The notes: a model not told the origin generated them from the sequence alone. 52,028 nt of DNA from an archaeon (GCA_035289485.1 DATDXA010000005.1:1-52028); one strand, 5' to 3'. Positions 11,701 through 47,589 are shown, counted from the first letter of the stretch. Numbers and translations: made by a program.

Positions 11701-11799
11701 GGAGCCACAGAACCCTTAATGCCCAAATGAAAATTTAAAGTGGACAGGGAGGAGCAGTTTAGAAAAACCATACAAGCGAGCGGGCTTTGCTTTGCAGTC

Positions 11800-12324
11800 T
11801 CACTCAAGCGTCTTCTGAAGCGAGAACGCGGGCAGAGCCTTGGACTTTTTAACTTCCGAAATAACAACAAGAGTTTTTATGTCAAGCACGCCATCAAGTG
11901 AACCGAGGCGCTCGACGAACTTCTCTGCCGAATCAAGGTCCGGGACAACGAGCTTTAGGAAAATATTGTACTCGCCAAGCACCTGATAGAGCTCAATTAC
12001 ATAATCGAGTTCCTTTAGTTTCTTTATCACGTCGCGGTTCTTTGAAAGCTCTGAGCGTATCTGCACAAAAACAGGGTTTTCATAACCCAGTGCCTTGAGA
12101 TTGAGGTCCGCGCTAATCGCATTGATTATCCCGCGCCTCTTGAGGCGCTCAACCCTTTTTTTAATCGCAACATCAGTTAGCTTCACTTCATTTGCAATGG
12201 TGCTAAAAGAAGCCCTTCCGTCCTCCAGAAGAAGGCCCAAAATCTTGTGATCAATCTTATCCAGAACTTCCAAAAATAAAACCCCAAAAAGAAACTTTTC
12301 TTCCCCTAAACGGTTTTCTAACAC
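11800..12324 (-). CDS. Lrp/AsnC-family transcriptional regulator
   Basis: LDKIDHKILGLLLEDGRASFSTIANEVKLTDVAIKKRVERLKRRGII plus RAM-like C-terminal half. Confidence 0.85.
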   Translation of the reverse strand: MLENRLGEEKFLFGVLFLEVLDKIDHKILGLLLEDGRASFSTIANEVKLTDVAIKKRVERLKRRGIINAISADLNLKALGYENPVFVQIRSELSKNRDVIKKLKELDYVIELYQVLGEYNIFLKLVVPDLDSAEKFVERLGSLDGVLDIKTLVVISEVKKSKALPAFSLQKTLE

Positions 12325-12411
12325 AAAAGCATTAAAAAGTTAAGTTTCCGAATGGAATGCACTTTTCCCATTGCCAATGGTTAAGATTTTTTCCAACCCT
12401 AATTAGAGCAA

Positions 12412-13980
12412 ATGGAAACCGATAGGCCGATAAAGGAAGTTCTCCAAAGGATTGCGTTTGAGTGCCAGGAGAGCGGGGCTACCAAATGGCAGGTCCTAAA
12501 GATCATCAAAGAGCTCGAGGAGTTTGAAGGAACGGAGCAGCAGCTGAGAAAAAACGCCTCGGAGGCGCTTGAGAAGCTCAATCCTGAGGCCGCAAAAACA
12601 TTTCTTTCATTTGAAAAAATGCGGGTGTATACTTCTGCGCAAAAGCTCGAGCCATTTGACAGGGGCAATATCATAAAATCCCTCCTTAAAGAAACCGGAA
12701 TCAGCAGGCATGTTGCGGAAAAAATCGGCTCGGAAGTTGAAGGAAAAATAAAGGACCTCAAGATAGAGTACCTCAACACGCACATCATAAGGGAGATGGT
12801 AAATGTCAAGCTGCTCGAGTACGGCCATGAGCCTGTGCACAGCCAGTATGCGCGCATAGGAATGCCGGTTTATGAAGTGAAGAAGAATCTTGACACGCGG
12901 GGATTTGACGGCTCTGAAATACTTGCCGAATACAACTGGCTTGCGGAAATCCCCGCGCAAGCAAGGGAGATGCACTTTGAGGGAATGATTCATATATGCG
13001 CCCCGCAGGATTTTTCAACAAAAATATTCTGCGCCGCAAAATTCCTGAGCGGAAGCAAAGAGGATGTGGCGCTCGGGGCGCAATCAATGGATTCGCTCTG
13101 CACACTGCCACTCACACTGAGAGGTTTCAACTTCGCATCCGCCGGCGCGCAAAAAATCACCAAAAAGAAAATGGCGCAGGAATGCGAATCAATAGGAAAA
13201 ACTTTCGCGCTCACAAAAAGGCGCAGGCTATCCGAGCTCTCGCTTTTCGCAGAAAGCAGCTGGCAGCAGGCAGCAGGCAAAAAGAACGATGCGGTGAAAC
13301 TTGCAAACGGCCTTCTTACACAATCGCTTGAAAGCATTGGATTTTACATCTCAGTGGATTCCAAATACCAGCTAAAGCTGATTGAAAAAAACTCCGCGCC
13401 CGAAAAAATGCTGATAGCCTCGCAATCCCGCGCAAAGACCGCGGCATTTGAAGAGCTGCTGCTTGCAGGAGAGCAGACCGCGGTGATGCAGGCGGTTGCG
13501 GTAAACCTTCCAAAGATTGCCGAACTCTCACTTGGCAGGGAGGAGAGATTCTTTGAGAACATTGATTCGGTAAAGGACGCCACTAAGGCGCTTTGTGAGA
13601 AGAAAAAGGAGGCGCTGCAAAAGCGCCCCTACTTCGAGAAATGGATGGCAGAAGAATCCACGAATGCTGTGTGCCTCTCAGGGCTGCACGCCGCATCTGC
13701 GGCAATCAATCAGGACGATCCTGGAAAAATAGCGGAAACGGCTATAGCATCGCTCCAAAAGGAAGGCTATGCGGTTTCTGAAAATATTGAAAATGCGGCG
13801 CAGAAAAGATTTGGCGTGCAAGAGCAGCGAGAGGAGATTCAGAAAATTCTTCTTGGAATGGGCGCTAAAACAAGAAAGTCCTATGGCTTTAGGTACCTGG
13901 CAGCCACAATGAAAGAGGCGGAGGGGCTTCTTGGTGACTGCCCGTTTGTTGAACTGCGGGCTGCTGGCAAGCAGCAGTAA
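12412..13980 (+). CDS. ATP-cone domain protein with NrdD-like N-terminal region, no recognisable glycyl-radical C-terminus
   Basis: ATP-cone-like KLEPFDRGNIIKSLLKETGISRHVAEKIGSEVEGKIKDL...IIREMVNVKLLEYG; MHFEGMIHI resembles the class III RNR motif; C-terminus lacks an RVCGY-type motif. Confidence 0.5.
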   Translation: METDRPIKEVLQRIAFECQESGATKWQVLKIIKELEEFEGTEQQLRKNASEALEKLNPEAAKTFLSFEKMRVYTSAQKLEPFDRGNIIKSLLKETGISRHVAEKIGSEVEGKIKDLKIEYLNTHIIREMVNVKLLEYGHEPVHSQYARIGMPVYEVKKNLDTRGFDGSEILAEYNWLAEIPAQAREMHFEGMIHICAPQDFSTKIFCAAKFLSGSKEDVALGAQSMDSLCTLPLTLRGFNFASAGAQKITKKKMAQECESIGKTFALTKRRRLSELSLFAESSWQQAAGKKNDAVKLANGLLTQSLESIGFYISVDSKYQLKLIEKNSAPEKMLIASQSRAKTAAFEELLLAGEQTAVMQAVAVNLPKIAELSLGREERFFENIDSVKDATKALCEKKKEALQKRPYFEKWMAEESTNAVCLSGLHAASAAINQDDPGKIAETAIASLQKEGYAVSENIENAAQKRFGVQEQREEIQKILLGMGAKTRKSYGFRYLAATMKEAEGLLGDCPFVELRAAGKQQ

Positions 13981-16404: not shown

Positions 16405-17073
16405 ATGAAAAAAGTCGTTTTAATTTTGCCACTATGTTTACTTTTAGCAGTATTTGTTTGGAGTTCCGGATGCGTAACCAAAAAAGATAACTCGGCAGGG
16501 GACTTGATTGAATCTGGCGAATATTCCGAAATTAGGAAAATGCCCAATAACGAGTTCTATCTGATAATGAAAGACGGATTCTATAACACAACTGAAGGAT
16601 ATAAAATAAAATTTCTTTATGGCAAAGGCTGGCAGTACACCCCATCCCTTACAGGATCGGTAAAATTAGTAAAAGTCAGTGACACTTATCCATACAATAC
16701 TGTTGCTATGATTAATATCACTAAACTTCCAATAGATACTTATCATCTTGAATCGACTATGCCTGAACTTAAACAAAAACTAATAGAAGGAGTGGCTATT
16801 GACAACAACCAATATACTAATTATAAATCAACAGGAATACGTGATATAAAGTTGGGGCAAATCGATGCATTCAATATTGACTTTGAGTATAGCGCTGACA
16901 TCGATAAAAACCGGTTTGCATATATACAAACTGGCAAGAAAATCCGGGTATATGCCTTTGTACAAAACGGTTATAGCTATGAAATACTTTATGGTGCAGA
17001 ACCTGATTTATATTCAAATTATTTAACAGAAGCGGACCAGATGATGAAAAGTTTTGAGATCTTCGAAAAATAG
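16405..17073 (+). CDS. secreted lipoprotein, unknown function (AT-rich gene)
   Basis: MKKVVLILPLCLLLAVFVWSSGC lipobox-like signal; visibly lower GC than its neighbours. Confidence 0.55.
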   Translation: MKKVVLILPLCLLLAVFVWSSGCVTKKDNSAGDLIESGEYSEIRKMPNNEFYLIMKDGFYNTTEGYKIKFLYGKGWQYTPSLTGSVKLVKVSDTYPYNTVAMINITKLPIDTYHLESTMPELKQKLIEGVAIDNNQYTNYKSTGIRDIKLGQIDAFNIDFEYSADIDKNRFAYIQTGKKIRVYAFVQNGYSYEILYGAEPDLYSNYLTEADQMMKSFEIFEK

Positions 17074-17078
17074 AAGGC

Positions 17079-18335
17079 CTAAGCGAAATCGGTGAGCCTC
17101 TTTTGATGGAAGGCATTGTCCAAAAGTTTGCTGTTCTTGAGCCAAAACTTCAGGGGAATTGTTAATTTGGTTTCCAGGTATTTCATAGCCAATTCAAGGC
17201 TGCCGAAAGATAGCGGATTTTTCTTCAGTGCATCCCTTGCAGTTTCACGGCATTTGAATACACCCAAAGAAGGTGTCCCTGAATCCCCAATCTCTCGGAA
17301 AACTATTGCAGTCGCTTGTTTTTGTTCACGCAACAAGTATTCGGTTACTGCAATTCGAACCGCATAATAACCGCCTGCAGTATTTTCTGCGTATGATGTT
17401 CTTCCGCCATAGTTTTCGAAATCGGACATGAAGGTTGGCTCCTTTGAATCTATGTTCCACATTGCACCGGGTTTCCATACCTCCAACAATTCATAACTCC
17501 ATTCTCTTGGCACAAGCACAATAGAGTAATAGTTTTCAAGATAGTTCGATTGGAATACCCTTACATCGCTAATTTGTGGAAAATATTTTATTTTATCTTC
17601 TATAAAATGCTCAGAAAGATTGCTGTCAATTGCCGTGATTGCGAATCTGGTCGGCACAAATTTCCTTTTCTTTTTCACGCCAAGCATCCCGGCGCTGAGG
17701 ATTTTGTGCAGCTGGTTCACGCCCACATCGCTTTTGTATAGCTCGACCATTGCATCGAGCGATTTTGCATCTGTATCTGAAACCAATTTGTCGATTTTCG
17801 GGTTCACGCTCGGGTTCTCGGTCATTGAAAACTTTTTGAGCCCTGCCTGCGGGCCCATGGGCGCGTGAAAATCTGAAAAGGATGCTCCGCGGATTGTCGG
17901 CCTGCCATCGAGCTCCATTTCAACACCCACGGGCTTTTTTGCCATCAGAGTTTCCTGAATTTCAAGAAGCTTGTAATCGGGATTCGATGCTTTTGAAATT
18001 TCTATCGGGATGTTGCCGCGCACCAGATTTTCGCGGAACGAAATTATTTTCTCGGCACTTAGGCCAAACCACTTATCGGTGTCATCCGCAAGCCACACAT
18101 CGCCATCTTCAAGAGCGGGAGCCATTGGAGAGAGATTAACTTTTGGGTAACCGTGCCATGAAACAAAAACCCCTGGAGGGGAATGGGTTTGCAAATTTTT
18201 ACTATCGACCTGCTTTGCTGCGAGTGTGCGTTTTTCAAAGCGCTCTAAAATGAAGCATTTTGGGCCGCACCACAATCTTCCCTTGCATTTGACGCAGACC
18301 TCAGGGGAGGGGGTAATTGTAATTTGCATAAACAC
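17079..18335 (-). CDS. archaeal Nre-family (DUF650/DUF651) putative DNA repair protein
   Basis: N-terminal CVKCKGRLWCGPKCF Cys cluster and size (about 418 aa) recall the Nre family. Confidence 0.55.
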   Translation of the reverse strand: MFMQITITPSPEVCVKCKGRLWCGPKCFILERFEKRTLAAKQVDSKNLQTHSPPGVFVSWHGYPKVNLSPMAPALEDGDVWLADDTDKWFGLSAEKIISFRENLVRGNIPIEISKASNPDYKLLEIQETLMAKKPVGVEMELDGRPTIRGASFSDFHAPMGPQAGLKKFSMTENPSVNPKIDKLVSDTDAKSLDAMVELYKSDVGVNQLHKILSAGMLGVKKKRKFVPTRFAITAIDSNLSEHFIEDKIKYFPQISDVRVFQSNYLENYYSIVLVPREWSYELLEVWKPGAMWNIDSKEPTFMSDFENYGGRTSYAENTAGGYYAVRIAVTEYLLREQKQATAIVFREIGDSGTPSLGVFKCRETARDALKKNPLSFGSLELAMKYLETKLTIPLKFWLKNSKLLDNAFHQKRLTDFA

Positions 18336-18369
18336 AATCTGGCTGAAAGTAATTAGGCTTTACGTAAAA

Positions 18370-18576
18370 TCACGCCTTTGCAAGATTGCCTTTGCCTTGG
18401 ATTGCCCTGAGCATATCAAGGGCCGTCCTTTCGGCATCGAGAATTTCTATCTCAACAGGCTTATTCTTCTTGTTATAATGAGTGATTATGTTGCCTGACT
18501 GCTCCGCAAAATCAGGCTTTTGCCTGCTAAGCTCGATTATGAGTATGTCCGTTTCTTTGTCATATTTATATTTCAT
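18370..18576 (-). CDS. DUF2283-like small protein (putative antitoxin)
   Basis: MKYKYDKETDILIIELS...KPVEIEILDA pattern; overlaps the upstream DUF4258-like gene by 11 nt. Confidence 0.65.
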   Translation of the reverse strand: MKYKYDKETDILIIELSRQKPDFAEQSGNIITHYNKKNKPVEIEILDAERTALDMLRAIQGKGNLAKA

Positions 18577-18802
18577 ATCTTCCCACCTTGGCTTTGTATG
18601 CCGTGATTACTATAATATCATTCCCCTTTTCCTCGTATATAACCCTTAGTACATATCCGTTGAGGCGCCTGTGCGCAATCTTTCTGCCGTAATTTCCCGC
18701 AGTTATAATTTCAGGTTCCGAAACGCATTCTTCCACCATTAAGGCGCTCAGGCGGTATTTTACCAGCCTTTCATGCGCATGCGGAGTAATGATTATTGGC
18801 AT
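18566..18802 (-). CDS. DUF4258-like small protein (putative toxin)
   Basis: MPIIITPHAHERLVKYRLS...VLRVIYEEKGNDIIVITAY; start set at ATG 18802, the longer ORF extension rejected. Confidence 0.6.
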   Translation of the reverse strand: MPIIITPHAHERLVKYRLSALMVEECVSEPEIITAGNYGRKIAHRRLNGYVLRVIYEEKGNDIIVITAYKAKVGRYEI

Positions 18803-19071
18803 CAAAAAATAGGCAAAAGAAAGGCGTAAGAGCTTTTGCAGGGTTCGGTGCCGGTGCGGGAAACGAATATTAAAGGCAGGAGAGAAATAGCTATATGGAA
18901 AAAAGTGGTGAGAATGAAGACCTTTTCCTACAGCTCGTGAAAGGGCTTGAAGACATACGAATGGGCAGAATAAAACTGTGGAAGCCAAAGGCTGCTGATT
19001 GAATCTTAGCCATTAGCTTGTGAAACGCCCACAAAACTGTTTTTATTGCTTCGCGAGCCTAAATTTAACCT

Positions 19072-20985
19072 ATGGCAACAAAGGGCATAACACTTGAGTT
19101 CCCTGACGGAACCAAAAAGGAATTCCCGAAAGGAACCACCGCGATGCAGGTTGCAGAAGGGATAGGCCCTCGGCTTGCAAAGGAAGCGCTCTCTGCAAAA
19201 CTGGATGAAACCGTAATCGAACTTGAGCGGCCCATTGAAGAGAGCGGCAAATTCCGCATCCTCACATGGAACGATGATGAGGGCAAAAAAAGCCTGTGGC
19301 ATACCGGAGCGCATGTGCTCGCAGAAGCTGTGCGCTCACTTTATGCGGATGCGCGAAACACAATAGGCCCGGCGCTTGATGAGGGGTTTTACCAGGATTT
19401 TTACACAAAAAATCCTTTCACTCCGGAAGATTTTGAAAAAATCGAAAAGAAAATGATGGAGATAATAAAATCGAAGCGAAAAATAGAGCGCGAAGTCGTT
19501 GACAAAAAAACCGCGCTCTCAAAATTCAAGGACAACAAGTTCAAGCAGGAGCTCATTGAGGAGTTCGCGGGCTCTGGAAAAACAATCACGCTCTACACAC
19601 AAGGGACATTCATTGACCTGTGCAAGGGCGGGCATGTATCCAACACTGAAAAAATCGCGGCGGTAAAGCTCACAAAAGTTTCGTCCGCTTACTGGCGCGC
19701 AGACCAGAAGCGCGAATCGCTGCAGAGAATTTACGGAATCGCATTCCCAAAAGCCTCGATGCTTGAAGAGTATGTGAAAGCGCATGAGGAAGCGGAGAAG
19801 AGAAACCACATGAAGCTTGGAAAAGAGCTCGGGCTTTTTTCAATGCAGGCGGAAGCTCCGGGATCTGTGTTTTTCCACGAGAAAGGCACAGCAATCTGGA
19901 ATTCGCTTACAGAATTTGCACGCGCGCAGCAGCGCAAGCGCGGGTATAGCGAAGTTATGACGCCCATAATTATGAAAAAGGAGCTCTGGCTAAAGAGCGG
20001 GCACTATGACCACTACAAGGAGAACATGTATTTTACAAAAATTGATGACGAGGAATATGCGGTAAAGCCGATGAACTGCCCCGGGCATATTTTGGTGTAC
20101 GCGGCAGGGCGGCACTCGTATAGGGATTTGCCGATTCGCATGGCTGAGTTTGGAATGGTTCACAGGCACGAACTCTCAGGGGTTTTGAACGGGCTTTTGC
20201 GCGTGCGAAAATTCACGCAGGATGATACGCACATTTTCTGTACGCCAGAGCAAATTGAAGGCGAGGTTGCCGCGCTACTCGAAATGGTTGATGAATATTA
20301 CAAAACATTCGGGTTTGAATACAGAATCGAACTAAGCACTCGCCCTGAAAAATCAATGGGCGCAAAGGAAGTGTGGGACAGGGCGGAGAGCGCGCTCAAG
20401 AACGCACTCAAAAAAATGGGCCGCGAATTCAAAATTAATGAAGGCGACGGAGCATTCTACGGACCCAAGATTGATTTCCATATCAAGGACGCACTTGCAA
20501 GAAGCTGGCAGCTTGGAACCATACAGCTCGATTTCCAGATGCCTGAAAAATTCGCAATAAGCTACATTGACAAGGATGATTCTGAAAAAAGGCCCGTGAT
20601 GATACACCGCGCAATCTTTGGCTCGATGGAGAGATTCATCGGAATACTTATCGAACACTATGCAGGAGCGTTCCCACTCTGGCTCTCACCTGTGCAGGTG
20701 AAAGTGATTTCTGTAAGCGAAAAGCACGCGGACTACGCTGAGAAGGTTCACAAATTGCTTTTAGAAAAAGGGGTGCGCTCAGAACTTGATGTGCGCGGGG
20801 AAACAGTCGGCTTCAAGGTGCGGCAGGCGCAGATGGAGAAGGTTCCCTTTGTTGTGAATGTTGGGGAGAAGGAAGAGGAAAAGGGAACGATTGCGGTGCG
20901 AGACCGCGCGGGAAAAGTCGAGTTTGGCTTGAAGGCCGCGGAGTTCGCAGCGAAAATTATTCAGCTCTCAAATGAGCGCAAATAA
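19072..20985 (+). CDS. thrS: threonine--tRNA ligase
   Basis: TGS domain start, HxxxH...CxxxH-type editing region, class II motifs (FRHE-like VHRHELSG, GAFYGPKID, ERFIGILIEHY). Confidence 0.95.
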   Translation: MATKGITLEFPDGTKKEFPKGTTAMQVAEGIGPRLAKEALSAKLDETVIELERPIEESGKFRILTWNDDEGKKSLWHTGAHVLAEAVRSLYADARNTIGPALDEGFYQDFYTKNPFTPEDFEKIEKKMMEIIKSKRKIEREVVDKKTALSKFKDNKFKQELIEEFAGSGKTITLYTQGTFIDLCKGGHVSNTEKIAAVKLTKVSSAYWRADQKRESLQRIYGIAFPKASMLEEYVKAHEEAEKRNHMKLGKELGLFSMQAEAPGSVFFHEKGTAIWNSLTEFARAQQRKRGYSEVMTPIIMKKELWLKSGHYDHYKENMYFTKIDDEEYAVKPMNCPGHILVYAAGRHSYRDLPIRMAEFGMVHRHELSGVLNGLLRVRKFTQDDTHIFCTPEQIEGEVAALLEMVDEYYKTFGFEYRIELSTRPEKSMGAKEVWDRAESALKNALKKMGREFKINEGDGAFYGPKIDFHIKDALARSWQLGTIQLDFQMPEKFAISYIDKDDSEKRPVMIHRAIFGSMERFIGILIEHYAGAFPLWLSPVQVKVISVSEKHADYAEKVHKLLLEKGVRSELDVRGETVGFKVRQAQMEKVPFVVNVGEKEEEKGTIAVRDRAGKVEFGLKAAEFAAKIIQLSNERK

Positions 20986-39629: not shown

Positions 39630-39690
39630 GAACAGAATTGGCCTAACTAAAATAAAATGGTTCCGTTGCACTTTTTGCGTTTTCGCAATA

Positions 39691-39795
39691 CACTTTTCTT
39701 TTCAGCGAGCGCTTCCTTGCACTCTTGCAGAGTGCGAGGTCTTGCAAACCTTTTGGATTTACCAGGTTCTTTTCGTGTCAACGAAAAGAAAAGGG
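39691..39795 (-). repeat. 105-nt structured repeat, copy 1 (sense orientation on the minus strand, 5' of the nuclease gene)
   Basis: Reverse complement aligns with 45681-45784 (12 mismatches and 1 indel by hand alignment). Confidence 0.85.
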
Positions 39796-39797
39796 CC

Positions 39798-40145
39798 CTA
39801 GTAGTACTTTGTCCCTTCACCTGTAAGTATCACAATCTTGAAATCTGACTTCTTCTCCTTAAGGGCGGCTAGCACTGCCATATGCTCCTTTCCAGAGCCG
39901 CTCACAAGGGAAACAACTATCTCATCGTCCGGAAGCTTGTTTTTTATCTCATCTTTTATGATTTCAAAGCCCGCGCGGTTGTTGACCATAATCCAGTCAC
40001 ATTCCTTTGAAGGGTTGAAGTTCTCCTTCCCCCACTCATTTGAAACAAGCAAAACCTTGTCGAATTTTTCCTCTGCAATGAGGCGCGCAACATGGCCCCA
40101 TGAGCCTTTTCCTATACCCAAAACCGCAATGAGAGTTCTGCCCAA
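39798..40145 (-). CDS. small Rossmann-like alpha/beta protein, unknown function
   Basis: MGRTLIAVLGIGKGSWG... and VVSLVSGSGKEHMAVLAAL; weak resemblance to CARF-type motifs only. Confidence 0.4.
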   Translation of the reverse strand: MGRTLIAVLGIGKGSWGHVARLIAEEKFDKVLLVSNEWGKENFNPSKECDWIMVNNRAGFEIIKDEIKNKLPDDEIVVSLVSGSGKEHMAVLAALKEKKSDFKIVILTGEGTKYY

Positions 40146-40347
40146 AATCCCACCTGCAATATATAGTGTAAATTATGTTTAAAAAAGAGGCACAATTGCC
40201 AAAATAAGGCATTATAAGGTACCTAAAGAATGGTGCGTAAAAATGCCGTGTTTTTGGGTTACATCAAACCAAGGGCTTGATGGATGGCGAACATAAAATT
40301 TGGAGTTTTTTGTTTGCTATAAAAACCCTTTCACAGCAAAACAAATT

Positions 40348-42045
40348 ATGAACGCAAAAGCAAGGCAATTCTCGCGCGAAATCATCAATGCAATTGAAAG
40401 CGGGGAAGTTAAGGATAAGCAGGCGCTTGACAGGCTTAAGCTATCGGAAGGCAAAAAGCTCAGGCTCTCAGAGCTGCCATCAAATCCTGATATACTCATG
40501 CAGGCGCAAAAGCCTTCGCAGGCAGTTGCGGGGCTGCTTTCTATTAAGCCCCTGCGCACGCTCTCAGGTGTTGCGCCGGTTGCCGTAATGACAAAGCCAA
40601 TTAATTGCCCGCATGGAACATGCATCTACTGCCCAGGTGGGCCAAACAGCGTTTTTGGAAACGTTCCGCAATCATACACAGGGCACGAACCGGCAACCAT
40701 GCGCGGAATCAATAACAACTATGATTCATACTTGCAGGCAATGAATAGGATATATCAGTATTTTGCCACAGGGCACAAGCCGGAAAAGCTTGAGCTTATT
40801 GTGATGGGCGGGACATTCCCCGCAACGCCACTATCGTATCAGGAGGAATTTATTTCAGGAGCTTTCCAGGCCGCAAATGACTTTTCCTCAATGTTTTTTG
40901 CGGAAAGCAAATTCGATTCCGGAAAATTCAACAAATTCTTTTCAATGGATGCCGCAGTGCAGAAGGAAAAGCTGCTGCAAATGAAAGAGGAACAGGATGT
41001 TGCAAAGCAGCATGCCCGCAATGAGAATGCCGATATTAGAATTGTTACCATGTGCATTGAAACAAAGCCGGATTGGTGCAAGCAGAAAGAAATTGACGGG
41101 ATGCTAGAGCTTGGGACAACAAGGGTTGAAATTGGAGTGCAGAGCCTTTATGAGGATGTTCTCAAATTCACTCACCGCGGGCACACGCTGCAGGACACGA
41201 TTGAAGCGACTCGGCTTCTCAAGGATTCCGGGTTGAAAGCAACTTATCACATGATGCCAGGGCAGCCGCTTAGCAGCCGCGAAAAGGACATTGACATGTT
41301 TCGCAAGCTTTTTGAAAATCCGGATTATAGGCCGGATGGGCTTAAGATTTACCCGTGCATGGTAATGCCTGGAACTGCGCTTTCAAAACTTTATGAATCT
41401 GGAAAATTCACGCCGCTTGGAACAGAAGAGGCCGCAGAAATAATTGCGGAAGCGAAAAGATATTTTCCGGAATATACGCGCGTGCACAGAATCCAGCGCG
41501 ATATCCCAACCAAATTCTCGCTTGGAGGGATAGACAAGAACAATTTGCGCCAGATTGTAGAGCATAAGCTTGCGAAAAAAGGGCTTTCGTGCAGGTGCAT
41601 AAGGTGCCGCGAATCAGGAATAAATTCTGAGAAGGGAAGGGAAGTTGATTATGATGCGGTTGAACTTGTGGAGCGCAAATATGATGCCAGCGGGGGCGAG
41701 GAAGTTTTCATTTCATATGAGCACAAGAAGAACGATTTGATTTTGGGATTTTGCAGGCTGCGAATGCCCTCTGAGCCGTTTAGGAAAGAATTCACCGCGG
41801 ATACGGCGTGCATACGAGAGCTGCATGTGTTCGGCGCTCAGGTCGGGCTCGGGGACCAGAAAGAAGAGAGTTCGCAGCACCGCGGATTTGGGAAAAAACT
41901 CGTGGAGCGCGCAGAGCAGATTGCGCAAGAGCAATTCGGCGCGCGCAAGATGCTTGTAATAAGCGGAGTGGGAGCACGGGAATATTACTCACAAAAGCTT
42001 GGGTACGCGCGAGATGGCGCGTATATGGGGAAGAAATTGATTTGA
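40348..42045 (+). CDS. elp3: Elp3-type radical SAM/GNAT tRNA carboxymethyluridine synthase
   Basis: CPHGTCIYCPGG radical SAM cluster, C-terminal GNAT (QHRGFGKKLVERAE). Confidence 0.9.
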   Translation: MNAKARQFSREIINAIESGEVKDKQALDRLKLSEGKKLRLSELPSNPDILMQAQKPSQAVAGLLSIKPLRTLSGVAPVAVMTKPINCPHGTCIYCPGGPNSVFGNVPQSYTGHEPATMRGINNNYDSYLQAMNRIYQYFATGHKPEKLELIVMGGTFPATPLSYQEEFISGAFQAANDFSSMFFAESKFDSGKFNKFFSMDAAVQKEKLLQMKEEQDVAKQHARNENADIRIVTMCIETKPDWCKQKEIDGMLELGTTRVEIGVQSLYEDVLKFTHRGHTLQDTIEATRLLKDSGLKATYHMMPGQPLSSREKDIDMFRKLFENPDYRPDGLKIYPCMVMPGTALSKLYESGKFTPLGTEEAAEIIAEAKRYFPEYTRVHRIQRDIPTKFSLGGIDKNNLRQIVEHKLAKKGLSCRCIRCRESGINSEKGREVDYDAVELVERKYDASGGEEVFISYEHKKNDLILGFCRLRMPSEPFRKEFTADTACIRELHVFGAQVGLGDQKEESSQHRGFGKKLVERAEQIAQEQFGARKMLVISGVGAREYYSQKLGYARDGAYMGKKLI

Positions 42046-42051
42046 TGCGCT

Positions 42052-42855
42052 TTAAGGCAGCACCAGGCTCAAAAATGAATCCGCAAGCTGGAACGGAAGA
42101 AGCGTAAATGTGAAAAACGGAAAACCTGAAAGGGGCGAGCCGAACTTTCCTTTTAGTGTCGGGCGCACATTCAGTTCCGAAGCGTAACTTTTCACTATCA
42201 GATTGTCCTCGCCTGCGAATGCCTGGAATGAAAACTGGAATTTTCCAGAAGAGAGAGGAGTGATTACAAGCTCAAGGTCTTGCGAAGTGTTAGGTTTTAT
42301 TTCAACACTTTTTTCCGAAAACCAGTTGCTTGGAAGAGTTGAACCAATCTTCACGCTGAATGGCGCTATTGAGGAGTTCGTTAGCTTTAAATTATAAATT
42401 GCCTTTCCACCAAGAAGCTGAGTCTCTTCGGTTGATTTTCTTGCAAAGGAAACATCGAGAAGATTTCTTTTGACAATTACGCGCACTTCAATTTGTTCTA
42501 AGGATTCTGGCTGGGAACTATTCGAAAGAGAAACCCGCAGCAGATAAATGTTTGGCGGCGCGTTTGTTGGAACTTTTATGCTTGCAACAAGCGAGGGGTC
42601 GGTTTTGTTGATTGAAACGATTTTCCACCCTGCAGGAAGGCTTGATTGCTCGATTGTTATGGAATCCCACTTGTAACCATGGCCTGAATCATTGGAAAAA
42701 CCCAGATTGAAAGCCTGGCCTGGCGAGACAAAACCAGCCTGAACCGATGCACCATCAGATAGGGTTGCATCTGCAGGATATGTCATTGAAACGGAGGCAT
42801 AAGCCGGTGCTGAGAGCAAGAGCATACATGCAAGAAAAAACGAGTATTTGAGCAT
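42052..42855 (-). CDS. secreted beta-rich protein with C-terminal hydrophobic anchor
   Basis: Signal peptide MLKYSFFLACMLLLSAPAYA; Ig-like/CARDB-like repeats suspected; C-terminal FPFFTFTLLPF. Confidence 0.5.
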   Translation of the reverse strand: MLKYSFFLACMLLLSAPAYASVSMTYPADATLSDGASVQAGFVSPGQAFNLGFSNDSGHGYKWDSITIEQSSLPAGWKIVSINKTDPSLVASIKVPTNAPPNIYLLRVSLSNSSQPESLEQIEVRVIVKRNLLDVSFARKSTEETQLLGGKAIYNLKLTNSSIAPFSVKIGSTLPSNWFSEKSVEIKPNTSQDLELVITPLSSGKFQFSFQAFAGEDNLIVKSYASELNVRPTLKGKFGSPLSGFPFFTFTLLPFQLADSFLSLVLP

Positions 42856-42928
42856 TTGACCCCTTAATTAGAGAACAGTGCGGAAAATTAAAAAACAATT
42901 GGTTGAAAGCTCTAAATAGAGGCTTAAA

Positions 42929-43558
42929 ATGCACAAAAAAACCCCTTTAAACACCGGCCCCGAAGGCGGAAATGAAAGCGGCTCACGCTTTAAAATGGTA
43001 AAGAAGCGGCATCGGAAAACGTACGAAACCGCACTTTCACAGGGAAAAGTAGATGAGCAGATGAAAGAGCTGTGCTCTTTTGTCACCGGGACTGAAAACT
43101 ACTTCACTTCGAGCTGCTGCAGCGGGAGAATAATGCTTCTTGAAAAGAGGGGAGATAAGAAAACCGAGAACTTTTTTCACCGCAAATGGCACAGAAACGT
43201 CACAAAAAAAGAGCTCCTTGAAGGATTCTTGGAGAATGTGAGCGGGGAAATGTGGTTCAAGCTGGACCCTTTCATATTGCACATAGGATGCGAAGATATC
43301 GAACACGCAAATGAGATACTCTTTGCAATGAAAAAGTCTGGCGTGAAAAGGGGCGGCATAATGGTTGCAGAGGAAGGAAAAGTTTTAATAGAACTGCAGG
43401 GAACTGAGCAGATGAGTTTTCCTCTAAAGCTTGGAAAAAAAATGCTTGTAAGCGAAGGTTACTTATCTGCAGTGCTGCCAAAAGCAAACAAAATGCTCTC
43501 AAAAAACTACAAAAGGCTTAGTACGCTGTGCGCGGAATTCCAAAAACAACTGAGGTGA
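42929..43558 (+). CDS. taw3: Taw3/TYW3-like tRNA wyosine-derivative methyltransferase
   Basis: YFTSSCCSGRI matches the TYW3 (S/T)xSSCxGR motif; start may be ATG 42995. Confidence 0.65.
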   Translation: MHKKTPLNTGPEGGNESGSRFKMVKKRHRKTYETALSQGKVDEQMKELCSFVTGTENYFTSSCCSGRIMLLEKRGDKKTENFFHRKWHRNVTKKELLEGFLENVSGEMWFKLDPFILHIGCEDIEHANEILFAMKKSGVKRGGIMVAEEGKVLIELQGTEQMSFPLKLGKKMLVSEGYLSAVLPKANKMLSKNYKRLSTLCAEFQKQLR

Positions 43559-43562
43559 TCAT

Positions 43563-44111
43563 GTGAGGCTCTTTGTCGGAATTGAAATCCCAAAGGAAAT
43601 CCGGGAAAAAATTGCGCCTGAACTCTCATTGAAAATCCCGCGAAGGGAATTCAAAATCGTGGAAGAGAAAAACCTGCACATTACTCTCTGCTTTATCGGG
43701 GAAGTGCCGGAAGAAAGCGCGCCTGAAATAAAGAGTCGGCTATCTGAAATAAAATTCGCAAGCTTCCGGGCAAGGCTTGAAGGCGCCGGCTCATTTCCAG
43801 GGCGCGTGCTCTGGCTTGGGCTTTCAGATGGCGCAAAAGAATGCGAAGAACTTGCCGCAAAAACCAGGCACGCACTTGGCGTTCAGGAGGAGAGGCTCCA
43901 TGCACATGTAACGCTTGCAAGGAACAGGCATGCGGAAGATGAGGAATTTGCAAGGGCCGAATCACCCATCAAAAAAATGAAATTTGCAGAAGAATTCGAA
44001 GTGCGCGCTTTTTCGCTGCTGCAATCTCGGCTCTTGCAATCCGGACCTGTTTATGAGGGACTTGCTGTGTTCCCGTCAAGCACTTTCCTTAGCAGAGATT
44101 CGGGGTCGTAA
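43563..44111 (+). CDS. thpR: RNA 2',3'-cyclic phosphodiesterase (ThpR/LigT, 2H family)
   Basis: Two HxTx motifs (HITLCF, HVTLAR); GTG start. Confidence 0.8.
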   Translation: MRLFVGIEIPKEIREKIAPELSLKIPRREFKIVEEKNLHITLCFIGEVPEESAPEIKSRLSEIKFASFRARLEGAGSFPGRVLWLGLSDGAKECEELAAKTRHALGVQEERLHAHVTLARNRHAEDEEFARAESPIKKMKFAEEFEVRAFSLLQSRLLQSGPVYEGLAVFPSSTFLSRDSGS

Positions 44112-45628
44112 TAGTACTGCTGCACAACAAGCTCAACTTCCTGAAGCGAGCGAATGTTGTTTGAAATCATCCATTCCAGGACTTTTTTTCTCGTAAAAAT
44201 CTCCTTTTCAATGTCCTTTTTTGTCTTGAGGGTTTTCGTGGCAATCTCCTCTATAAGCCTCATTGGGATGTCTGTTCGCAATATCTTGTCAGACCTGCCA
44301 TCCCACTCAAAAATGTTGCTCACAAGCGGCTGCCTCTCCATTGAGCTTATTTCGGTAACTGTAAGAACGCGCCTCTGCCAGCCCTTTCCTTTCACATACA
44401 TGCGGAACTGCACAATCACAAGGTTTAGAAGCGGCACAAGCTCTTCGGGAACATTCATTGGGTCGGATTTTAAGCGCAAAAGCATCTCGCGCGCAGAATT
44501 GCTGTGCAATGTGCCAAGGCTTCCCTTGTGCCCCGTATCCATTGCAACAAAGAGCGTCTGCGCCTCCGGGCCCCTTACTTCCCCCACAATGAGCCTGTCT
44601 GGCCTCATTCTCATCGCGTTCTTTAGAAGGTCATTCATTGTCGTGCCTTCCTGCCCCTTGAGCCTTGGCCTTGTCTCCATCCGCACCCAATTGTCCCTGT
44701 TTCCGAGCTGGAGCTCAAGAGTGTCCTCGATTGAAACAACCCTTTCAGAGAACCTTATGAAAACCGAAAGCGCGTTCAGGGTAGTGGTTTTTCCAGAGCC
44801 GGATCCGCCGATAATTATCATATTCATAGGCTCTATGCCCATGCCCTCGACCATCACCCAGAAAAATGCTGCCAAATCCGAAGTCATTGTGTTGTTCTCT
44901 ATGAGATCCACAATCGTAAGAGGGGCGGATGTGAACTTTCTTATGGTCAGTGTCGAGCCAAACGGGGTTACAAAAGGAAAGGTCGCATTAGCCCTGTTGC
45001 CATCGGGAAGACGCGCATCAAGAAGCGGGTGATCCGCATCTATTGTTTTCCCAACCGAGCGCGCAATCTTTAGGAGCAAATCATCAAGGAACTTCTTGTC
45101 CGAATAATTGATGTTTGTCTTGCAGTGGCCGTATCGGCGGTGGAATATGAAAACATTTTTTTCATACCCGTTAACCATCACTTCCTCAAGGTCATCATCC
45201 CGCAGAAGCGAGGCAAGCTTGCCATAACCCACGGAATTGTCGAGAATCATTTCCGCAACAATGCCGGCTTTTTTGCTGTCTGGAAAATACTCCTTGATAA
45301 GCGCAATAAGGGACTCTTTCATTGACTGCATATCCTCTGTCCTTAATAGGTACTCAAGGCCCTCGCTGTAGGTTATTGGCTTTAGTATCTTCTCCTTAAA
45401 CTGGCGGACAAAATCCACTGAAAAAACGCCGCCATAGCGGGAATCAAGCTCATCGGTACCGAGTTTCCCCAAGATTATGCTGGTTAGCGCTTCTGAGAGT
45501 ATTATCTCGTCCTCACTAAAATCAGGCTCAGAAACCTCATAGAAGAAAAAAGGGAAGCCCTCGTAAATTATGGTATTTCCGTACGATTCGGCCTTTTCAC
45601 CCCTGAATTCATTAACTGCACGTTCCAT
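44051..45628 (-). CDS. second FlaI/PilB-family secretion ATPase (no adjacent platform gene)
   Basis: Walker A GGSGSGKTT, LIVGEVR, TGHKGSLGTLHS; 3' end overlaps thpR by 61 nt, convergently. Confidence 0.9.
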   Translation of the reverse strand: MERAVNEFRGEKAESYGNTIIYEGFPFFFYEVSEPDFSEDEIILSEALTSIILGKLGTDELDSRYGGVFSVDFVRQFKEKILKPITYSEGLEYLLRTEDMQSMKESLIALIKEYFPDSKKAGIVAEMILDNSVGYGKLASLLRDDDLEEVMVNGYEKNVFIFHRRYGHCKTNINYSDKKFLDDLLLKIARSVGKTIDADHPLLDARLPDGNRANATFPFVTPFGSTLTIRKFTSAPLTIVDLIENNTMTSDLAAFFWVMVEGMGIEPMNMIIIGGSGSGKTTTLNALSVFIRFSERVVSIEDTLELQLGNRDNWVRMETRPRLKGQEGTTMNDLLKNAMRMRPDRLIVGEVRGPEAQTLFVAMDTGHKGSLGTLHSNSAREMLLRLKSDPMNVPEELVPLLNLVIVQFRMYVKGKGWQRRVLTVTEISSMERQPLVSNIFEWDGRSDKILRTDIPMRLIEEIATKTLKTKKDIEKEIFTRKKVLEWMISNNIRSLQEVELVVQQYYYDPESLLRKVLDGNTASPS

Positions 45629-45680
45629 TTTAGAGCACCAAGAAGCTATTTATTATACAATTTAATACTATATAAACTAG

Positions 45681-45784
45681 CCTTTTTCTTTTCGTTGCAC
45701 GAAAAGAACCTGGCAAACTCAAGAGGTTTGCAAGGCCTCGCACTCTGCAAGAGTGCAAGGAAACCCTAGGGAAAAAGAAAAGTG
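45681..45784 (+). repeat. 105-nt structured repeat, copy 2 (sense on the plus strand, 5' of cca)
   Basis: See copy 1; three hairpins: 45686-45708, 45709-45735, 45736-45760. Confidence 0.85.
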
Positions 45785-45791
45785 CAAGGTT

Positions 45792-47165: not shown

Positions 47166-47479
47166 GCTGGCGGCTTTCTTGAACGCGGCAAGGCGCGCTG
47201 GATGAGACCGAGAGCTTTTTCACGCAGCCTTTTGAAGGTGCGATAGCGAGATGCGCCAGCCTTGGCAGATGCGGTTTTTCTTTTCAATTTCAAGTAAGGC
47301 TGCATCGCTGCAAAACTAATGCGCTTTCCGCCCCTGCCAAGCCGCCAGGAAAATGCGGCTTCCTTGGCAGCGGCATCTTGAGCATTGGCAACCTTTTGTG
47401 CAAGCTTTTTCATTCCGCTTTTGCGAAGCCTTGCCCGCATGTGGAAAAGGGAATCTCCTGCCCTGCTTCGTAAGCCCAT
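47159..47479 (-). CDS. small very basic protein, unknown function
   Basis: TATA TTTATATA (47502-47509, minus) lies about 25 nt upstream of ATG 47479 (leaderless geometry); K/R-rich 106 aa. Confidence 0.4.
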   Translation of the reverse strand: MGLRSRAGDSLFHMRARLRKSGMKKLAQKVANAQDAAAKEAAFSWRLGRGGKRISFAAMQPYLKLKRKTASAKAGASRYRTFKRLREKALGLIQRALPRSRKPPAQ

Positions 47480-47514
47480 GCAATAGAAAGGGATTTGGAA
47501 ATATATAAACCAAG

Positions 47515-47589
47515 CGAGCCCGGTGGGATTTGAACCCACGACCTCTTCGTCCGAAGCGAAGCGCAATATCCTGCCTATGCTACGGGCCC
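47515..47589 (-). tRNA. tRNA-Arg (anticodon UCG), no intron, no encoded CCA
   Basis: Hand-folded cloverleaf: acceptor GGGCCCG/CGGGCTC (G2.U71), U8, A14, G18G19, anticodon arm CTTCG-CTTCGGA-CGAAG, T arm GTGGG-TTCAAAT-CCCAC. Confidence 0.9.

Follow-up and report, generated by a model that had tools for sequence, protein, structure and literature searches.

The 52,028-nt stretch of a DPANN archaeon (Iainarchaeota) analyzed here, hereafter the window, carries an inverted pair of structured elements that, to judge from their sequence, are enlarged members of a widespread, little-studied class of three-tract fold-back modules. Along one strand, a module consists of a pyrimidine tract (Y), a short loop, a tract that is the reverse complement of Y (R1), a spacer, and a third tract that is the mirror of R1 (R2); the window element is this compact module with two extra hairpins (∼60 nt) in its spacer. 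We favor, with a probability of roughly 0.45, the reading that the two copies are enlarged forms of a transcribed gene-end element acting as a terminator or barrier, and that they were generated by conversion or duplication.

The original prediction of an inverted 105-nt repeat of ∼88% identity was upheld: a repeat search returned arms at 39691-39794 and 45681-45784 (104 nt, 83% complementary ungapped), and gapped blastn aligned copy 1 to copy 2 at 87.7% identity across 106 nt. The 37-nt core, likewise predicted to be repeated, occurs exactly twice in the window, with none expected from 100 shuffles; the repeat pair is not due to chance. This near-invariant core sits within the stretch formed by hairpins 2 and 3 (45709..45760 in copy 2). 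Flanking ORF positions confirm that both copies are intergenic and oriented alike relative to the downstream gene. Copy 1 (39691-39795) begins 2 nt past the stop codon of the ORF p115 and precedes the ATG (39629) of an Endonuc_Holl (Holliday-junction-resolvase-like, HJ-like) gene by ∼60 nt; copy 2 (45681-45784) has the start of a T2SSE ATPase gene (45628, minus) on one side and the cca ATG (45792) on the other. Further copies had been proposed as a check: near-identical ones number just two in ∼72 kb of this genome (core match and blastn), and an exact 22-nt core has no match in 185,579 species genomes or JGI metagenomes, whereas compact family members were found in relatives. The parts of both copies are listed in Table 1.

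Table 1. Parts of the two copies and neighboring features, in window coordinates
Feature	Position	Strand	Remark
p115	39798..40145	-	115-aa ORF, no Pfam match
p115 stop codon	39798-39800	-	copy 1 tract Y begins 2 nt later
Copy 1 tract Y, CCCTTTTCTTTTCG	39782..39795	-	pyrimidine, two T4 runs; 5' arm of hairpin 1
Copy 1 loop 1, TTGACA	39776..39781	-	complementary to the tail after R2
Copy 1 tract R1, CGAAAAGAA	39767..39775	-	reverse complement of Y; 3' arm of hairpin 1, 9 bp
Copy 1 hairpin 2	39740-39766	-	
Copy 1 hairpin 3	39715-39739	-	with hairpin 2, 39715..39766
Copy 1 tract R2, GAAAAGAAAAG	39693..39703	-	mirror of R1; parallel complement of Y, 11/11
Copy 1 tail, TGTA	39689..39692	-	pairs with loop 1 (putative pseudoknot helix S2)
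TATA boxes, TTTATTATA ... TATATAAA	45648..45676	.	back to back; conserved divergent T2SSE ATPase/cca promoter
Copy 2 tract Y, CCTTTTTCTTTTCG	45681..45694	+	starts 4 nt past the TATATAAA box (45669-45676)
Copy 2 loop 1, TTGCA	45695-45699	+	
Predicted cca transcription start	~45699		in the loop 1-R1 part of copy 2; inferred from TATA spacing
Copy 2 tract R1, CGAAAAGAA	45700-45708	+	
Copy 2 hairpin 2	45709-45735	+	
Copy 2 hairpin 3	45736-45760	+	
Copy 2 tract R2, GGAAAAAGAAAAG	45770..45782	+	parallel complement of Y, 13/13
Copy 2 tail, TGCA	45783..45786	+	4 bp with TGCA of loop 1; cca ATG next at 45792
Lone TTTTTCTTTTC tract	47275..47285	+	110 nt past the cca stop

The three hairpins of each copy fold as originally described. 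On the gene-sense strand, 65 of 66 stem cells hold standard pairs; the one-sided stem differences between the copies (n=4) are all exchanges of G-C and G.U, and four of the five stem differences are G.U-neutral on this strand. The C.A mismatch noted earlier in hairpin 3 on the gene-sense strand is present in both copies. The proposed closing of the hairpins into a cloverleaf by a polypyrimidine/polypurine stem fails, as each copy has a single pyrimidine tract (45681-45694, plus; 39782-39795, minus) that is already engaged in hairpin 1; closing stem and hairpin 1 are therefore mutually exclusive as Watson-Crick helices. Aligned antiparallel, the outer tracts of copy 2 reach at best 10 Watson-Crick pairs, one wobble and one mismatch over 12 positions (81% complementarity over a longer 21-nt stretch), whereas in parallel, CCTTTTTCTTTTC against GGAAAAAGAAAAG, they match at 13 of 13. 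Where the tracts of relatives are asymmetric, the outer two are mirror images of each other and not Watson-Crick complements. A tRNA and RNA family search (ARAGORN, Rfam) found only a tRNA-Arg at 47514-47589, with no match at either copy. For these reasons we rejected a tRNA-like cloverleaf, and the tRNA-like decoy that had been suggested is not supported either. The functional strand, earlier left open, now weakly favors gene sense. Among non-Watson-Crick Y:R1 pairs of the module set, T.G outnumbers C.A by 23 to 11; against gene sense stand the C.A of hairpin 3 and the covarying helices of a larger module-bearing unit in bacterial-looking contigs, with ∼6 G.U versus 8 A.C pairs.

The tract relations recur well beyond the window. 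In all 14 tabulated modules (two from the window and 12 related), which span at least five different C/G patterns, the tracts agree position by position in the fold-back register: three consecutive homopyrimidine/homopurine blocks, of which block 2 is the reverse complement and block 3 the mirror, not the direct, version. Conservation is highest in the outer tracts, Y and R2, and lowest in R1; in the window, R1 covers just 9 of the 11-13 tract positions and in copy 1 is shorter than its Y and R2. Copy 2 matches the T5 of its Y with an A5 in R2, and copy 1 matches T4 with A4. A scan of 430 kb of related loci chosen without regard to the pattern gave 12 modules, compared to none in 10 dinucleotide shuffles. 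The module is also common in metagenomes and viral contigs, and no Rfam family matches it. Viral contigs show a mirror third tract in at least 120 stretches and a direct one in 35, just 17 of which are not also mirror matches. The pattern used to search metagenomes and viral contigs already requires three tracts, so its matches cannot prove the mirror rule, whereas the related loci and the direct-tract control can. The loops depart from the ITxF definition of intrastrand triplex motifs, which calls for 1-6 nt: loop 1 has 5-6 nt, but the second loop, which holds two hairpins in the window, measures ∼61-67 nt there, and compact relatives have 6-10 nt. Of the suggestion that the repeats form a small ncRNA family, family membership stands, and the family is far larger than was visible earlier; its members may act as RNA.

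Relatives also point to how the window form may have arisen. A compact near-twin (L106), located 7 nt past a tRNA-Ala in an archaeal rRNA operon, has the same Y, loop (TTGCA) and tail (TGCA) with a spacer of 8 nt; on this basis, hairpins 2 and 3 of copy 1 are a lineage-specific insertion of ∼60 nt between R1 and R2. Compact modules occupy the orthologous site 3' of p115 in distant relatives (L014, L019, L020, and L028), and others directly follow tRNA-Arg (L003, L005, L012, L014, L017, L021, and L040). The interval from cca to tRNA-Arg carries a full module in relatives where the window has the lone TTTTTCTTTTC tract, identical in sequence to that in copy 2 Y and without an R1 or R2 partner. 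At the site of copy 2, the L040/L004 lineage also has a compact module, which in L040 starts TATATAAA-ACAG-CC-TTTTTC; in most relatives, only ∼15-40 nt separate the TATA boxes of the divergent promoter from the cca start.

Beyond the tracts themselves, loop 1 is frequently complementary to the tail that follows R2. Complementarity of at least 4 nt was found in 36 of 103 modules, compared to 13-15 of 103 in each of three controls, and of at least 6 nt in nine modules, compared to 0-1. Many different sequences across the family keep this pairing, so that both the pairing of a loop with 3' sequence and the covariation expected of an H-type pseudoknot are seen family-wide. The window copies keep it through a change from G-C to G.U (copy 1 pairs T-A, G.U, C-G and A-U with one A bulged); from the window by itself the support would be weak, because it offers only two sequences. 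The sole fold that uses all tract relations is, as predicted here, a triple-stranded H-type pseudoknot, in which R2 would run back along hairpin 1 and the loop-tail helix would serve as a lock.

For 23 modules, an ORF on the same strand ends no more than 30 nt before Y, compared to seven in the opposite arrangement, and 14 modules have a canonical hairpin and T-run terminator in the 100 nt that follow on the Y-R1-R2 strand, compared to none on the other strand. Two U4 tracts form an efficient archaeal terminator, bound by aCPSF1 (PMC8716108). Copy 1 has the corresponding placement, with T4CT4 starting 5 nt past the p115 stop, as do relatives, whose T5-6CT3-4 lies no more than 10 nt from the end of a tRNA or ORF; copy 2 does not, because no gene ends upstream of it. 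We therefore suggest that a module would be a transcribed element at gene ends, Y first, usually within ∼10 nt of a tRNA 3' end or stop codon, and that Y would supply two U4 runs used by archaeal RNA polymerase and aCPSF1 as a termination signal. As the opposite strand has two more U4-type tracts, the module could be a two-way stop. Read-through transcripts would fold into a compact three-stranded knot that hinders 3'-to-5' exonucleases and further read-through. Copy 1 would do this gene-end job for p115, at the site of the compact module of distant relatives, whereas just the part of copy 2 comprising R1, hairpin 2, hairpin 3, and R2 would enter the cca leader.

Several observations count against parts of this reading. 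Modules accompany only one or two of ∼20 genes per locus, and so are not a general terminator. Efficient termination at the U tracts would leave R1 and R2 seldom transcribed and the RNA fold rare. Copy 2 and the copies in L040, L009, and L006 lie upstream of genes instead of at 3' ends. The textbook U.A-U geometry is found here on the strand opposite to gene sense. Gene sense would call for a purine.purine-pyrimidine triple (A.A-U, G.G-C), which counts against an RNA triplex, since RNA strands are reported not to form the purine-motif triple (cited in PMC4666352).

The module might alternatively act as DNA, as an intrastrand triplex repeat of the PIT/BoxC/TMECO kind that folds as single-stranded DNA during replication or transcription, has no RNA role, is dispersed and expansion-prone, spreads by slippage, duplication or conversion, and sits at gene ends because it is tolerated there. 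We consider this possible but on balance somewhat unlikely, since module orientation follows transcription in both of the placement counts above, the loop-tail pseudoknot helix covaries, and T.G exceeds C.A in Y:R1; moreover, modules are kept at orthologous sites (tRNA-Arg, p115) even though the cca proteins of the genomes concerned share only 45-60% identity, which argues for function rather than drift. Yet the block order Y-R-R(mirror) is exactly that of class II repeats, with class IV on the other strand, and the purine triplex motif is established for DNA, not RNA (PMC4666352). Tandem amplification of third tracts or of whole modules is seen in L040 (four tracts), L097, L090, and L106, contig L004 breaks within modules at both its ends, and several modules in both orientations share a contig in L044 (n=4) and L059 (n=3), all as a DNA repeat would predict. 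The rough balance of G.U and A.C in the larger bacterial-looking unit also favors DNA, as does the predicted transcription start, which divides copy 2 and so keeps it from acting there as one intact RNA. Gene conversion would fit the inverted pairs in the window and in L040. The L040 pair consists of multi-tract modules on either side of cca with 79% mean column identity (156-column alignment, flanks included), whose homology, read from the sequence, begins at GCC, the 3' end of tRNA-Arg; the module upstream of cca in L040/L004 was evidently duplicated from the one after tRNA-Arg. For the window, conversion or duplication between two module sites at a distance of 6 kb would best account for the 88% identity, insertion included.

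Two 88%-identical copies at that distance could alternatively be insertions of a small MITE- or REP-like mobile element upstream of cca and after p115, with the T-rich and A-rich tracts as terminal repeats. The 'empty' cca promoter region of the nearest relatives (L021, L039), the patchy distribution of modules at a given site on the cca tree, and the multi-copy state of the family in metagenomic contigs would fit such an element, but the outer tracts are mirror images rather than inverted repeats wherever they are asymmetric, neither copy has a target-site duplication, and a Pfam scan found no transposase gene in the 10 ORFs of 38.5-48.4 kb. With the copy number and the absence of the 22-nt core elsewhere already given, the terminal inverted repeats, target-site duplication and many copies of a MITE are not found for the window copies. 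Both sites hold compact modules in other lineages; conversion between existing modules thus fits better than transposition, and we regard a mobile element as improbable. More improbable still is the shared 5' leader or riboswitch-like RNA for cca and the HJ-like nuclease that had been proposed, possibly as a tRNA-like decoy sensed by the CCA-adding enzyme, whose substrate is tRNA ends. Both copies are indeed oriented alike toward the downstream gene, modules elsewhere are tRNA trailers, and in two lineages (the window and L040/L004) the element lies between TATA box and cca start, the L040 copy beginning with GCC, the last three bases of the neighboring tRNA-Arg copy. Against a leader, the predicted cca start lies within hairpin 1, which by TATA spacing would place the T-rich arm outside the cca mRNA; a TATA-like box belonging to the HJ-like gene itself lies between element and ATG, and copy 1 abuts the p115 stop; tRNA and Rfam matches are lacking; and in many organisms this module is found after unrelated genes and tRNAs. 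Nor is the element kept with cca: none of the 21 remaining cca loci that were read has it upstream, those of the closest relatives, L021 and L039, among them.

The original prediction also raised an invertible block, in which the repeats would be recombination sites flipping the 5.9 kb from elp3 to the T2SSE ATPase gene. Inverted repeats of 104 nt at 88% identity could serve homologous recombination, yet we found a single arrangement throughout, in all retrieved independent assemblies of the species (L001, L002, and L035) and in ∼20 related genomes that have the same block orientation without the repeat pair; with no recombinase domain in adjacent ORFs (Pfam scan), inversion is extremely unlikely. 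The order HJ-like, p115, elp3, p267, taw3, thpR, T2SSE, cca is kept across ∼20 related genomes, and so is the way the flanking genes face the block; the one exception is elp3, flipped in seven of them.

The closest known kind is the PIT/BoxC/TMECO group of E. coli and other bacteria (Hoyne/Maher 2000; Holder et al. 2015, PMC4666352), which shares the three blocks on one strand (Y, reverse-complement R, mirror R), the class II/IV assignment, the intergenic location and the multi-copy state. Unlike the G/C-rich PITs, the present family is A/T-rich, occurs both in DPANN archaea and in contigs of phage or bacterial-looking type, directly follows tRNA ends and stop codons with Y first, has a spacer of 6-10 nt in compact members (∼67 nt with two hairpins in the window), can have tandemly amplified third tracts, and in many members adds the loop 1-tail helix that would give a pseudoknot. 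The likeness to aCPSF1 U-tract terminators (PMC8716108) lies in Y (T4-5 C T4), a double U4 tract 2-10 nt past a gene end, and in the U4 tracts of the opposite strand, which one would expect where genes converge, as cca and tRNA-Arg do in relatives; ordinary terminators, however, require no complementary or mirror tract, the module serves few genes per locus, and termination alone leaves the mirror relation unexplained. Like REP/BIME and MITE sequences, the module is short, structured, repeated and intergenic, often just past stop codons inside transcription units; REPs stabilize upstream mRNA against exonucleases. It differs from them in its mirror-related ends, its two copies in ∼72 kb, and in having neither target-site duplication nor transposase.

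Triple-helix pseudoknots (telomerase RNA, SAM-II, preQ1-II) and the ENE/MALAT1 elements combine a U-rich/A-rich helix with a third strand and a second helix that locks it, as is predicted for the module. On the opposite strand, the tracts run in the order of MALAT1 and telomerase RNA (U-rich, hairpins, U-rich, loop, A-rich), where the triples would be U.A-U and C+.G-C, whereas the favored strand has one U-rich and two A-rich tracts and would need purine-type or minor-groove triples. ENE/MALAT1 triple helices protect RNA 3' ends, and the location of modules at RNA 3' regions fits a protective role. Unlike these riboswitches and ENEs, the module is matched by no Rfam model. That modules, with their loop-tail helix, form an unrecognized class of triple-stranded pseudoknot RNA spread across prokaryotes, in 3' trailers and 3' UTRs not only of archaea but also of bacteria and phages, seems to us unlikely. 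If true, such RNAs would be barriers to exonucleases or read-through, or modulators of termination, with the window holding an enlarged archaeal version, and they would parallel, in prokaryotes, the ENE/MALAT1 triple helices of eukaryotes and viruses.

The two inverted copies are a true repeat, as the original prediction held: a repeat search of the window returned 104-nt arms at 39691-39794 and 45681-45784 that are 83% complementary ungapped, a gapped comparison gives 87.7% identity between the copies across 106 nt, and the 37-nt core occurs exactly twice in the window, with none expected from shuffles. ORF calls round both sites agree with the claim that each copy is intergenic (see table). 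Between copy 1 and the ATG of the HJ-like (Endonuc_Holl) gene stands a TATA-like box belonging to that gene, TTTTATTTTA; with this box lying past the copy, the suggestion of a leader shared by the HJ-like gene and cca is unsupported. In most relatives the spacer between the T2SSE-type ATPase gene and cca is a short bidirectional promoter (TTTATTATA, ~12 nt, TATATAAA, ~15-40 nt, cca start), and in the window copy 2 extends from 4 nt past TATATAAA to 5 nt short of the cca ATG. Neither the window nor ~20 kb of additional flanking sequence from other assemblies yielded a further copy, and searches of 185,579 species genomes and of JGI metagenomes gave no exact match to the 22-nt core of hairpin 3.

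Positions of the element, its flanking genes and members of the ~170-nt unit
Feature	Sequence	Position	Strand	Remarks
Copy 1	window	39691-39795	-	
Copy 2	window	45681-45784	+	
p115	window	39798-40145	-	115-aa ORF without Pfam match; stop 2 nt before start of copy 1
Endonuc_Holl (HJ-like) gene	window	ATG 39629		Pfam; ~60 nt past end of copy 1
T2SSE-type ATPase gene	window	start 45628	-	Pfam; divergent from cca, copy 2 between their starts
cca, class I CCA-adding enzyme	window	ATG 45792		Pfam; copy 2 upstream
~170-nt unit	L104	6362-6528	-	
~170-nt unit	L088	4270-4436	+	
~170-nt unit	L066	94-258	-	
~170-nt unit	L058	1666-1828	-	
~170-nt unit	L047	3233-3399	-	

By its cca relatives, the window belongs to Iainarchaeota (Diapherotrites, a DPANN lineage). 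Genes at the locus run HJ-like, p115, elp3, p267 (a neighbouring ORF), taw3, thpR, T2SSE ATPase and cca, with tRNA-Arg next in convergent orientation. About 20 related genomes retain both this order and the way the block faces relative to the HJ-like gene and cca (in 7 of the genomes elp3, and no other gene, is inverted), and the same arrangement is found in three other assemblies of the window species (L001, L002 and L035). The 5.9-kb block is thus housekeeping DNA of ancestral origin, still oriented as in the ancestor, with no sign of the inversion that the two copies had been thought to allow. The thpR (2',5' RNA ligase family, +) and T2SSE ATPase (-) ORFs overlap convergently by ~60 nt (window 44051-44111), as they also do in gene calls of other same-species assemblies and of the relatives L039 and L040. 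About 10 kb beyond the window, L035 carries a DUF87 ATPase gene with an intein that includes a LAGLIDADG domain (17014-20412, minus strand).

In the p115/HJ-like interval of four relatives (L014, L019, L020, and L028), a compact module lies directly 3' of the p115 stop. It consists of a pyrimidine tract (Y), a 2-7 nt loop, a purine tract (R1) that is the reverse complement of Y, a 6-9 nt spacer, and a second purine tract (R2) that mirrors R1 rather than repeating it directly (e.g. R1 AAGAGAAAGAAAAA and R2 AAAAAGAAAGAGAA in L028). Modules also occur no more than 10 nt past tRNA-Arg, facing the convergent cca, in the fetched loci L003, L005, L012, L014, L017, L021, and L040. When 14 modules are tabulated, the three tracts agree at each position in the fold-back register, with at least five C/G patterns; R2 agrees with the complement of Y at least as closely as with R1 in 13 of the 14, which makes R1 the most degenerate tract. 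The 430 kb of related loci, fetched via cca without any pattern selection, hold 12 modules, compared to 0 in 10 dinucleotide shuffles, and there a third tract accompanies essentially every long Y:R hairpin. Judged by its sequence, the window element is such a three-tract module, with hairpin 1 formed by Y and R1 and with hairpins 2 and 3 inserted in the spacer. It has a compact near-twin in L106 (GCAC-T6CT4CG-TTGCA-CGA4GA5-CCTGCGCT-A5GA4G-TGCA), 7 nt past tRNA-Ala in the 16S-23S interval of an archaeal rRNA operon. The closest relative, L021, has an enlarged module after tRNA-Arg, whose spacer holds two hairpins unrelated to those of the window. The corresponding ~350 nt of the window, from the cca stop to tRNA-Arg (47166-47513), show no called gene in other assemblies and no Rfam match, with an isolated TTTTTCTTTTC at 47275-47285. 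Relatives carry a full module here. We found no description of A/T-rich three-tract modules in the literature on archaea or Bacteroidetes.

The window copies fold into the three hairpins of the original description, and z-scores range from -2.3 to -4.2 whichever strand is folded. On the gene-sense strand, standard pairs occupy 65 of 66 stem cells, and all four one-sided differences of the two copies exchange G-C and G.U. The cloverleaf-like closure by a 5' pyrimidine and a 3' purine tract fails, because the sole pyrimidine tract already serves as the 5' arm of hairpin 1. Placed antiparallel, the outer tracts of copy 2 form, over 12 positions read by hand, no more than 10 Watson-Crick pairs, with a wobble and a mismatch besides (a longer antiparallel stretch in the repeat search is 81% complementary across 21 nt), and placed parallel they match at 13 of 13 positions (CCTTTTTCTTTTC vs GGAAAAAGAAAAG); T4/A4 in the outer tracts of copy 1 corresponds to T5/A5 in copy 2. 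At the element in the window, ARAGORN finds no tRNA, and Rfam no family at gathering or permissive thresholds, which together with the imperfect closing stem leaves the tRNA-like decoy without support. Rfam likewise yields no true family for the metagenomic module members.

Scanning metagenomes with one tract pattern gave at least 120 stretches. Among the matches listed, the bases immediately after R2 are complementary to loop 1 in many modules (loop/tail pairs CTTGAT/ATCAAG, CTTGAC/GTCAAG, GTCGC/GCGAC, TGCCC/GGGCA, and TTCGCG/CGCGAA); complementarity reaches at least 4 nt in 36 of 103 modules as compared to 13-15 of 103 in three controls, and at least 6 nt in 9 of 103 as compared to 0-1. The window copies have the same relation, loop TTGCA pairing with tail TGCA in copy 2, and loop TTGACA with tail TGTA in copy 1, where a G.U pair maintains it. 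A hairpin with a third strand folded back and a loop-tail helix would form an H-type pseudoknot, a geometry that points to one strand folding on itself, not to duplex DNA being recognized. On viral contigs, the mirror third-tract pattern matched at least 120 stretches, and the direct third-tract control pattern 35, of which 17 are not mirror matches as well.

Several variants were recorded in other contigs. The three-tract module forms the 5' part of a ~170-nt unit in bacterial-looking metagenome contigs (five members are listed in the table, and there are ~12 more), with nested helices bearing many compensatory changes, a hairpin with a near-invariant loop AACTCGCTTCGCTCAAACAGT, a T run next in some members, and a conserved CGCTT further 3'; some contigs hold several copies, and the unit has no Rfam match. 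An abundant viral family (IMG/VR; L164, L165, L190, L176, and ~50 more) has the form GTACT-TTTTTCTTTG-NNN-CAAAGAAAAAAG-ATACC-AAAAAAGAAA, with a canonical GC-rich terminator hairpin and T run ~10 nt further on. Third tracts or whole modules stand three to four times in tandem in L040 (11400-11530), L097 (6828-6990), L090 (893-1050), and L106 (minus strand, downstream of 2106); the spacers are short palindromes (CCTTGG, CGCGGCCG), and every unit of L090 also has a TATA-like CTTATAAATG. The 1.5-kb contig L004, which holds only cca, breaks inside modules at both ends (1-60 and 1440-1537), as expected if modules are repeats left unresolved in assembly. At L110 1347-1560, the 3' part of tRNA-Gly is duplicated ~100 nt downstream together with GAGCCC and a T-rich tract, in a pattern suggestive of a tandem or att-type duplication.

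Both sites of the window element are occupied in other genomes: the copy 1 site has compact modules in distant relatives, and the copy 2 site has a compact multi-tract module in L040/L004, starting TATATAAA-ACAG-CC-TTTTTC. In L040 an inverted pair of multi-tract modules flanks cca. The homology of this pair begins at GCC, on a hand reading the discriminator plus CC of tRNA-Arg, so that the tRNA trailer is the probable source of the duplicate upstream of cca. The cca tree places L040/L004 as sister to (L039, (L021, window)), and L039 and L021 are without an upstream copy, so that the tree calls for a single gain with two losses, or else for two gains. Since both window copies share an insertion of ~60 nt at 88% identity, gene conversion or duplication between the two module sites, 6 kb apart, would be the simplest account. 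No cca relatives were found at 75-99% identity (the nearest are at 73-74%), and covariation of hairpins 2 and 3 is therefore limited to the two copies. The exact core being absent elsewhere, and no cca relative falling between 74% and 100%, the enlarged form appears confined to the window species; searches for a source of hairpins 2 and 3 gave no significant similarity elsewhere. A hairpin beside modules in L044 (4865-4890, CGCACTC-TGCG-GAGTGCG) has 11 nt in common with window hairpin 3 (45736-45760), a match at chance level, and was rejected as the source of the insertion; we take it to resemble the stem of a type I-C CRISPR repeat. A TnpB gene (OrfB_IS605 / Cas12f-like domains) adjoins tRNA-Arg of L040 on the side away from the module (11690-12868, minus strand), yet no link with the module was seen, and IS200/IS605 element ends were dismissed.

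Module orientation tends to follow that of neighboring genes. The start of Y is no more than 30 nt from the stop of an ORF on its own strand in 23 modules, as compared to 7 in the opposite arrangement (this symmetric comparison alone was used, spurious ORFs having made the other context counts noisy), and the genes upstream of stop-adjacent modules are unrelated among themselves. Among the matches listed, the metagenome set includes five modules next to a tRNA, in four cases no more than 10 nt downstream of it and on its strand, and a canonical hairpin and T-run terminator follows within 100 nt downstream in 14 modules on the Y-R1-R2 strand and in none on the opposite strand. Twelve of these 14 are viral, mostly of one family, whose sample ids lead us to guess at crAss-like gut phages. 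Non-Watson-Crick pairs in Y:R1 comprise 23 T.G and 11 C.A, and the stem differences of the window copies are G.U-neutral on the Y-R1-R2 strand; both lean toward the gene-sense strand. In the larger bacterial-looking unit, G.U vs A.C counts show no strand preference.

The chemistry of the triples bears on whether the module acts as RNA or as single-stranded DNA. An RNA fold on the Y-R1-R2 strand is disfavored because its triples would be purine.purine-pyrimidine, a kind documented for DNA and reported not to form with RNA (PMC4666352). The U.A-U / C+.G-C geometry falls on the opposite strand, which runs U-rich, (hairpins), U-rich, loop, A-rich. That geometry is the textbook one for triples, and the order U-rich, U-rich, loop, A-rich is found in MALAT1, telomerase RNA, and SAM-II. 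A double U4 run is the first tract met from either side of the module, which counts against an RNA fold in archaea, where such a run is an efficient termination signal bound by aCPSF1 (PMC8716108). Overall, we lean toward a gene-sense transcript.

The analysis demonstrates how the three tracts and the loop and tail are related, that these relations exceed chance, and how modules are placed and oriented; a role as a transcribed gene-end element is what we infer. Y and the two opposite-strand tracts would act as a bidirectional U-tract terminator, and the fold may hinder exonucleases or read-through. TATA spacing predicts a cca transcription start at ~45699, in loop 1 of copy 2 (the predicted start also falls in loop 1 in L040), so that the cca mRNA leader of ~93 nt would contain only R1, hairpin 2, hairpin 3, and R2. 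The strongest competing view is a PIT/BoxC-type triplex repeat that acts in DNA alone and tends to slip and convert; the tandem third tracts of L040, L097, L090, and L106 speak for it, as do the breaks of L004 inside modules, and the loop-tail helix speaks against it. Other candidates were set aside: by eye, the module has no match to the Bacteroidetes promoter motif (TTTG / TAnnTTTG); a symmetric protein-binding site fails in that a mirror image is no rotation, leaving one protein unable to read both tracts; and a nascent-RNA:DNA triplex ahead of the polymerase is geometrically implausible. In block order the module is the same as bacterial intrastrand triplex motifs of class II/IV, whose function is unknown. 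Unlike those catalogued motifs, the module family is A/T-rich, occurs in archaea and phage contigs, is tied to gene ends, is often pseudoknotted, and tolerates long spacer insertions.

For annotation, these results correct a tempting misreading of the element as a tRNA-like gene, a riboswitch, or an invertible cassette. The function of prokaryotic intrastrand triplex motifs has been open since 2000, and the modules now offer comparative handles on it: a consistent Y-first position no more than ~10 nt from tRNA ends or stop codons, and before canonical terminators in phage contigs; tract patterns that covary across three strands, with an added pseudoknot helix in many members; and natural variants with tandem third tracts and large spacer insertions. 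If the fold forms in RNA, no 3'-end triple-helix element would have been described in archaea or bacteria before the module, which Rfam lacks; if it acts only as DNA, it would mark hotspots of duplication and gene conversion beside tRNA genes in very small DPANN genomes.
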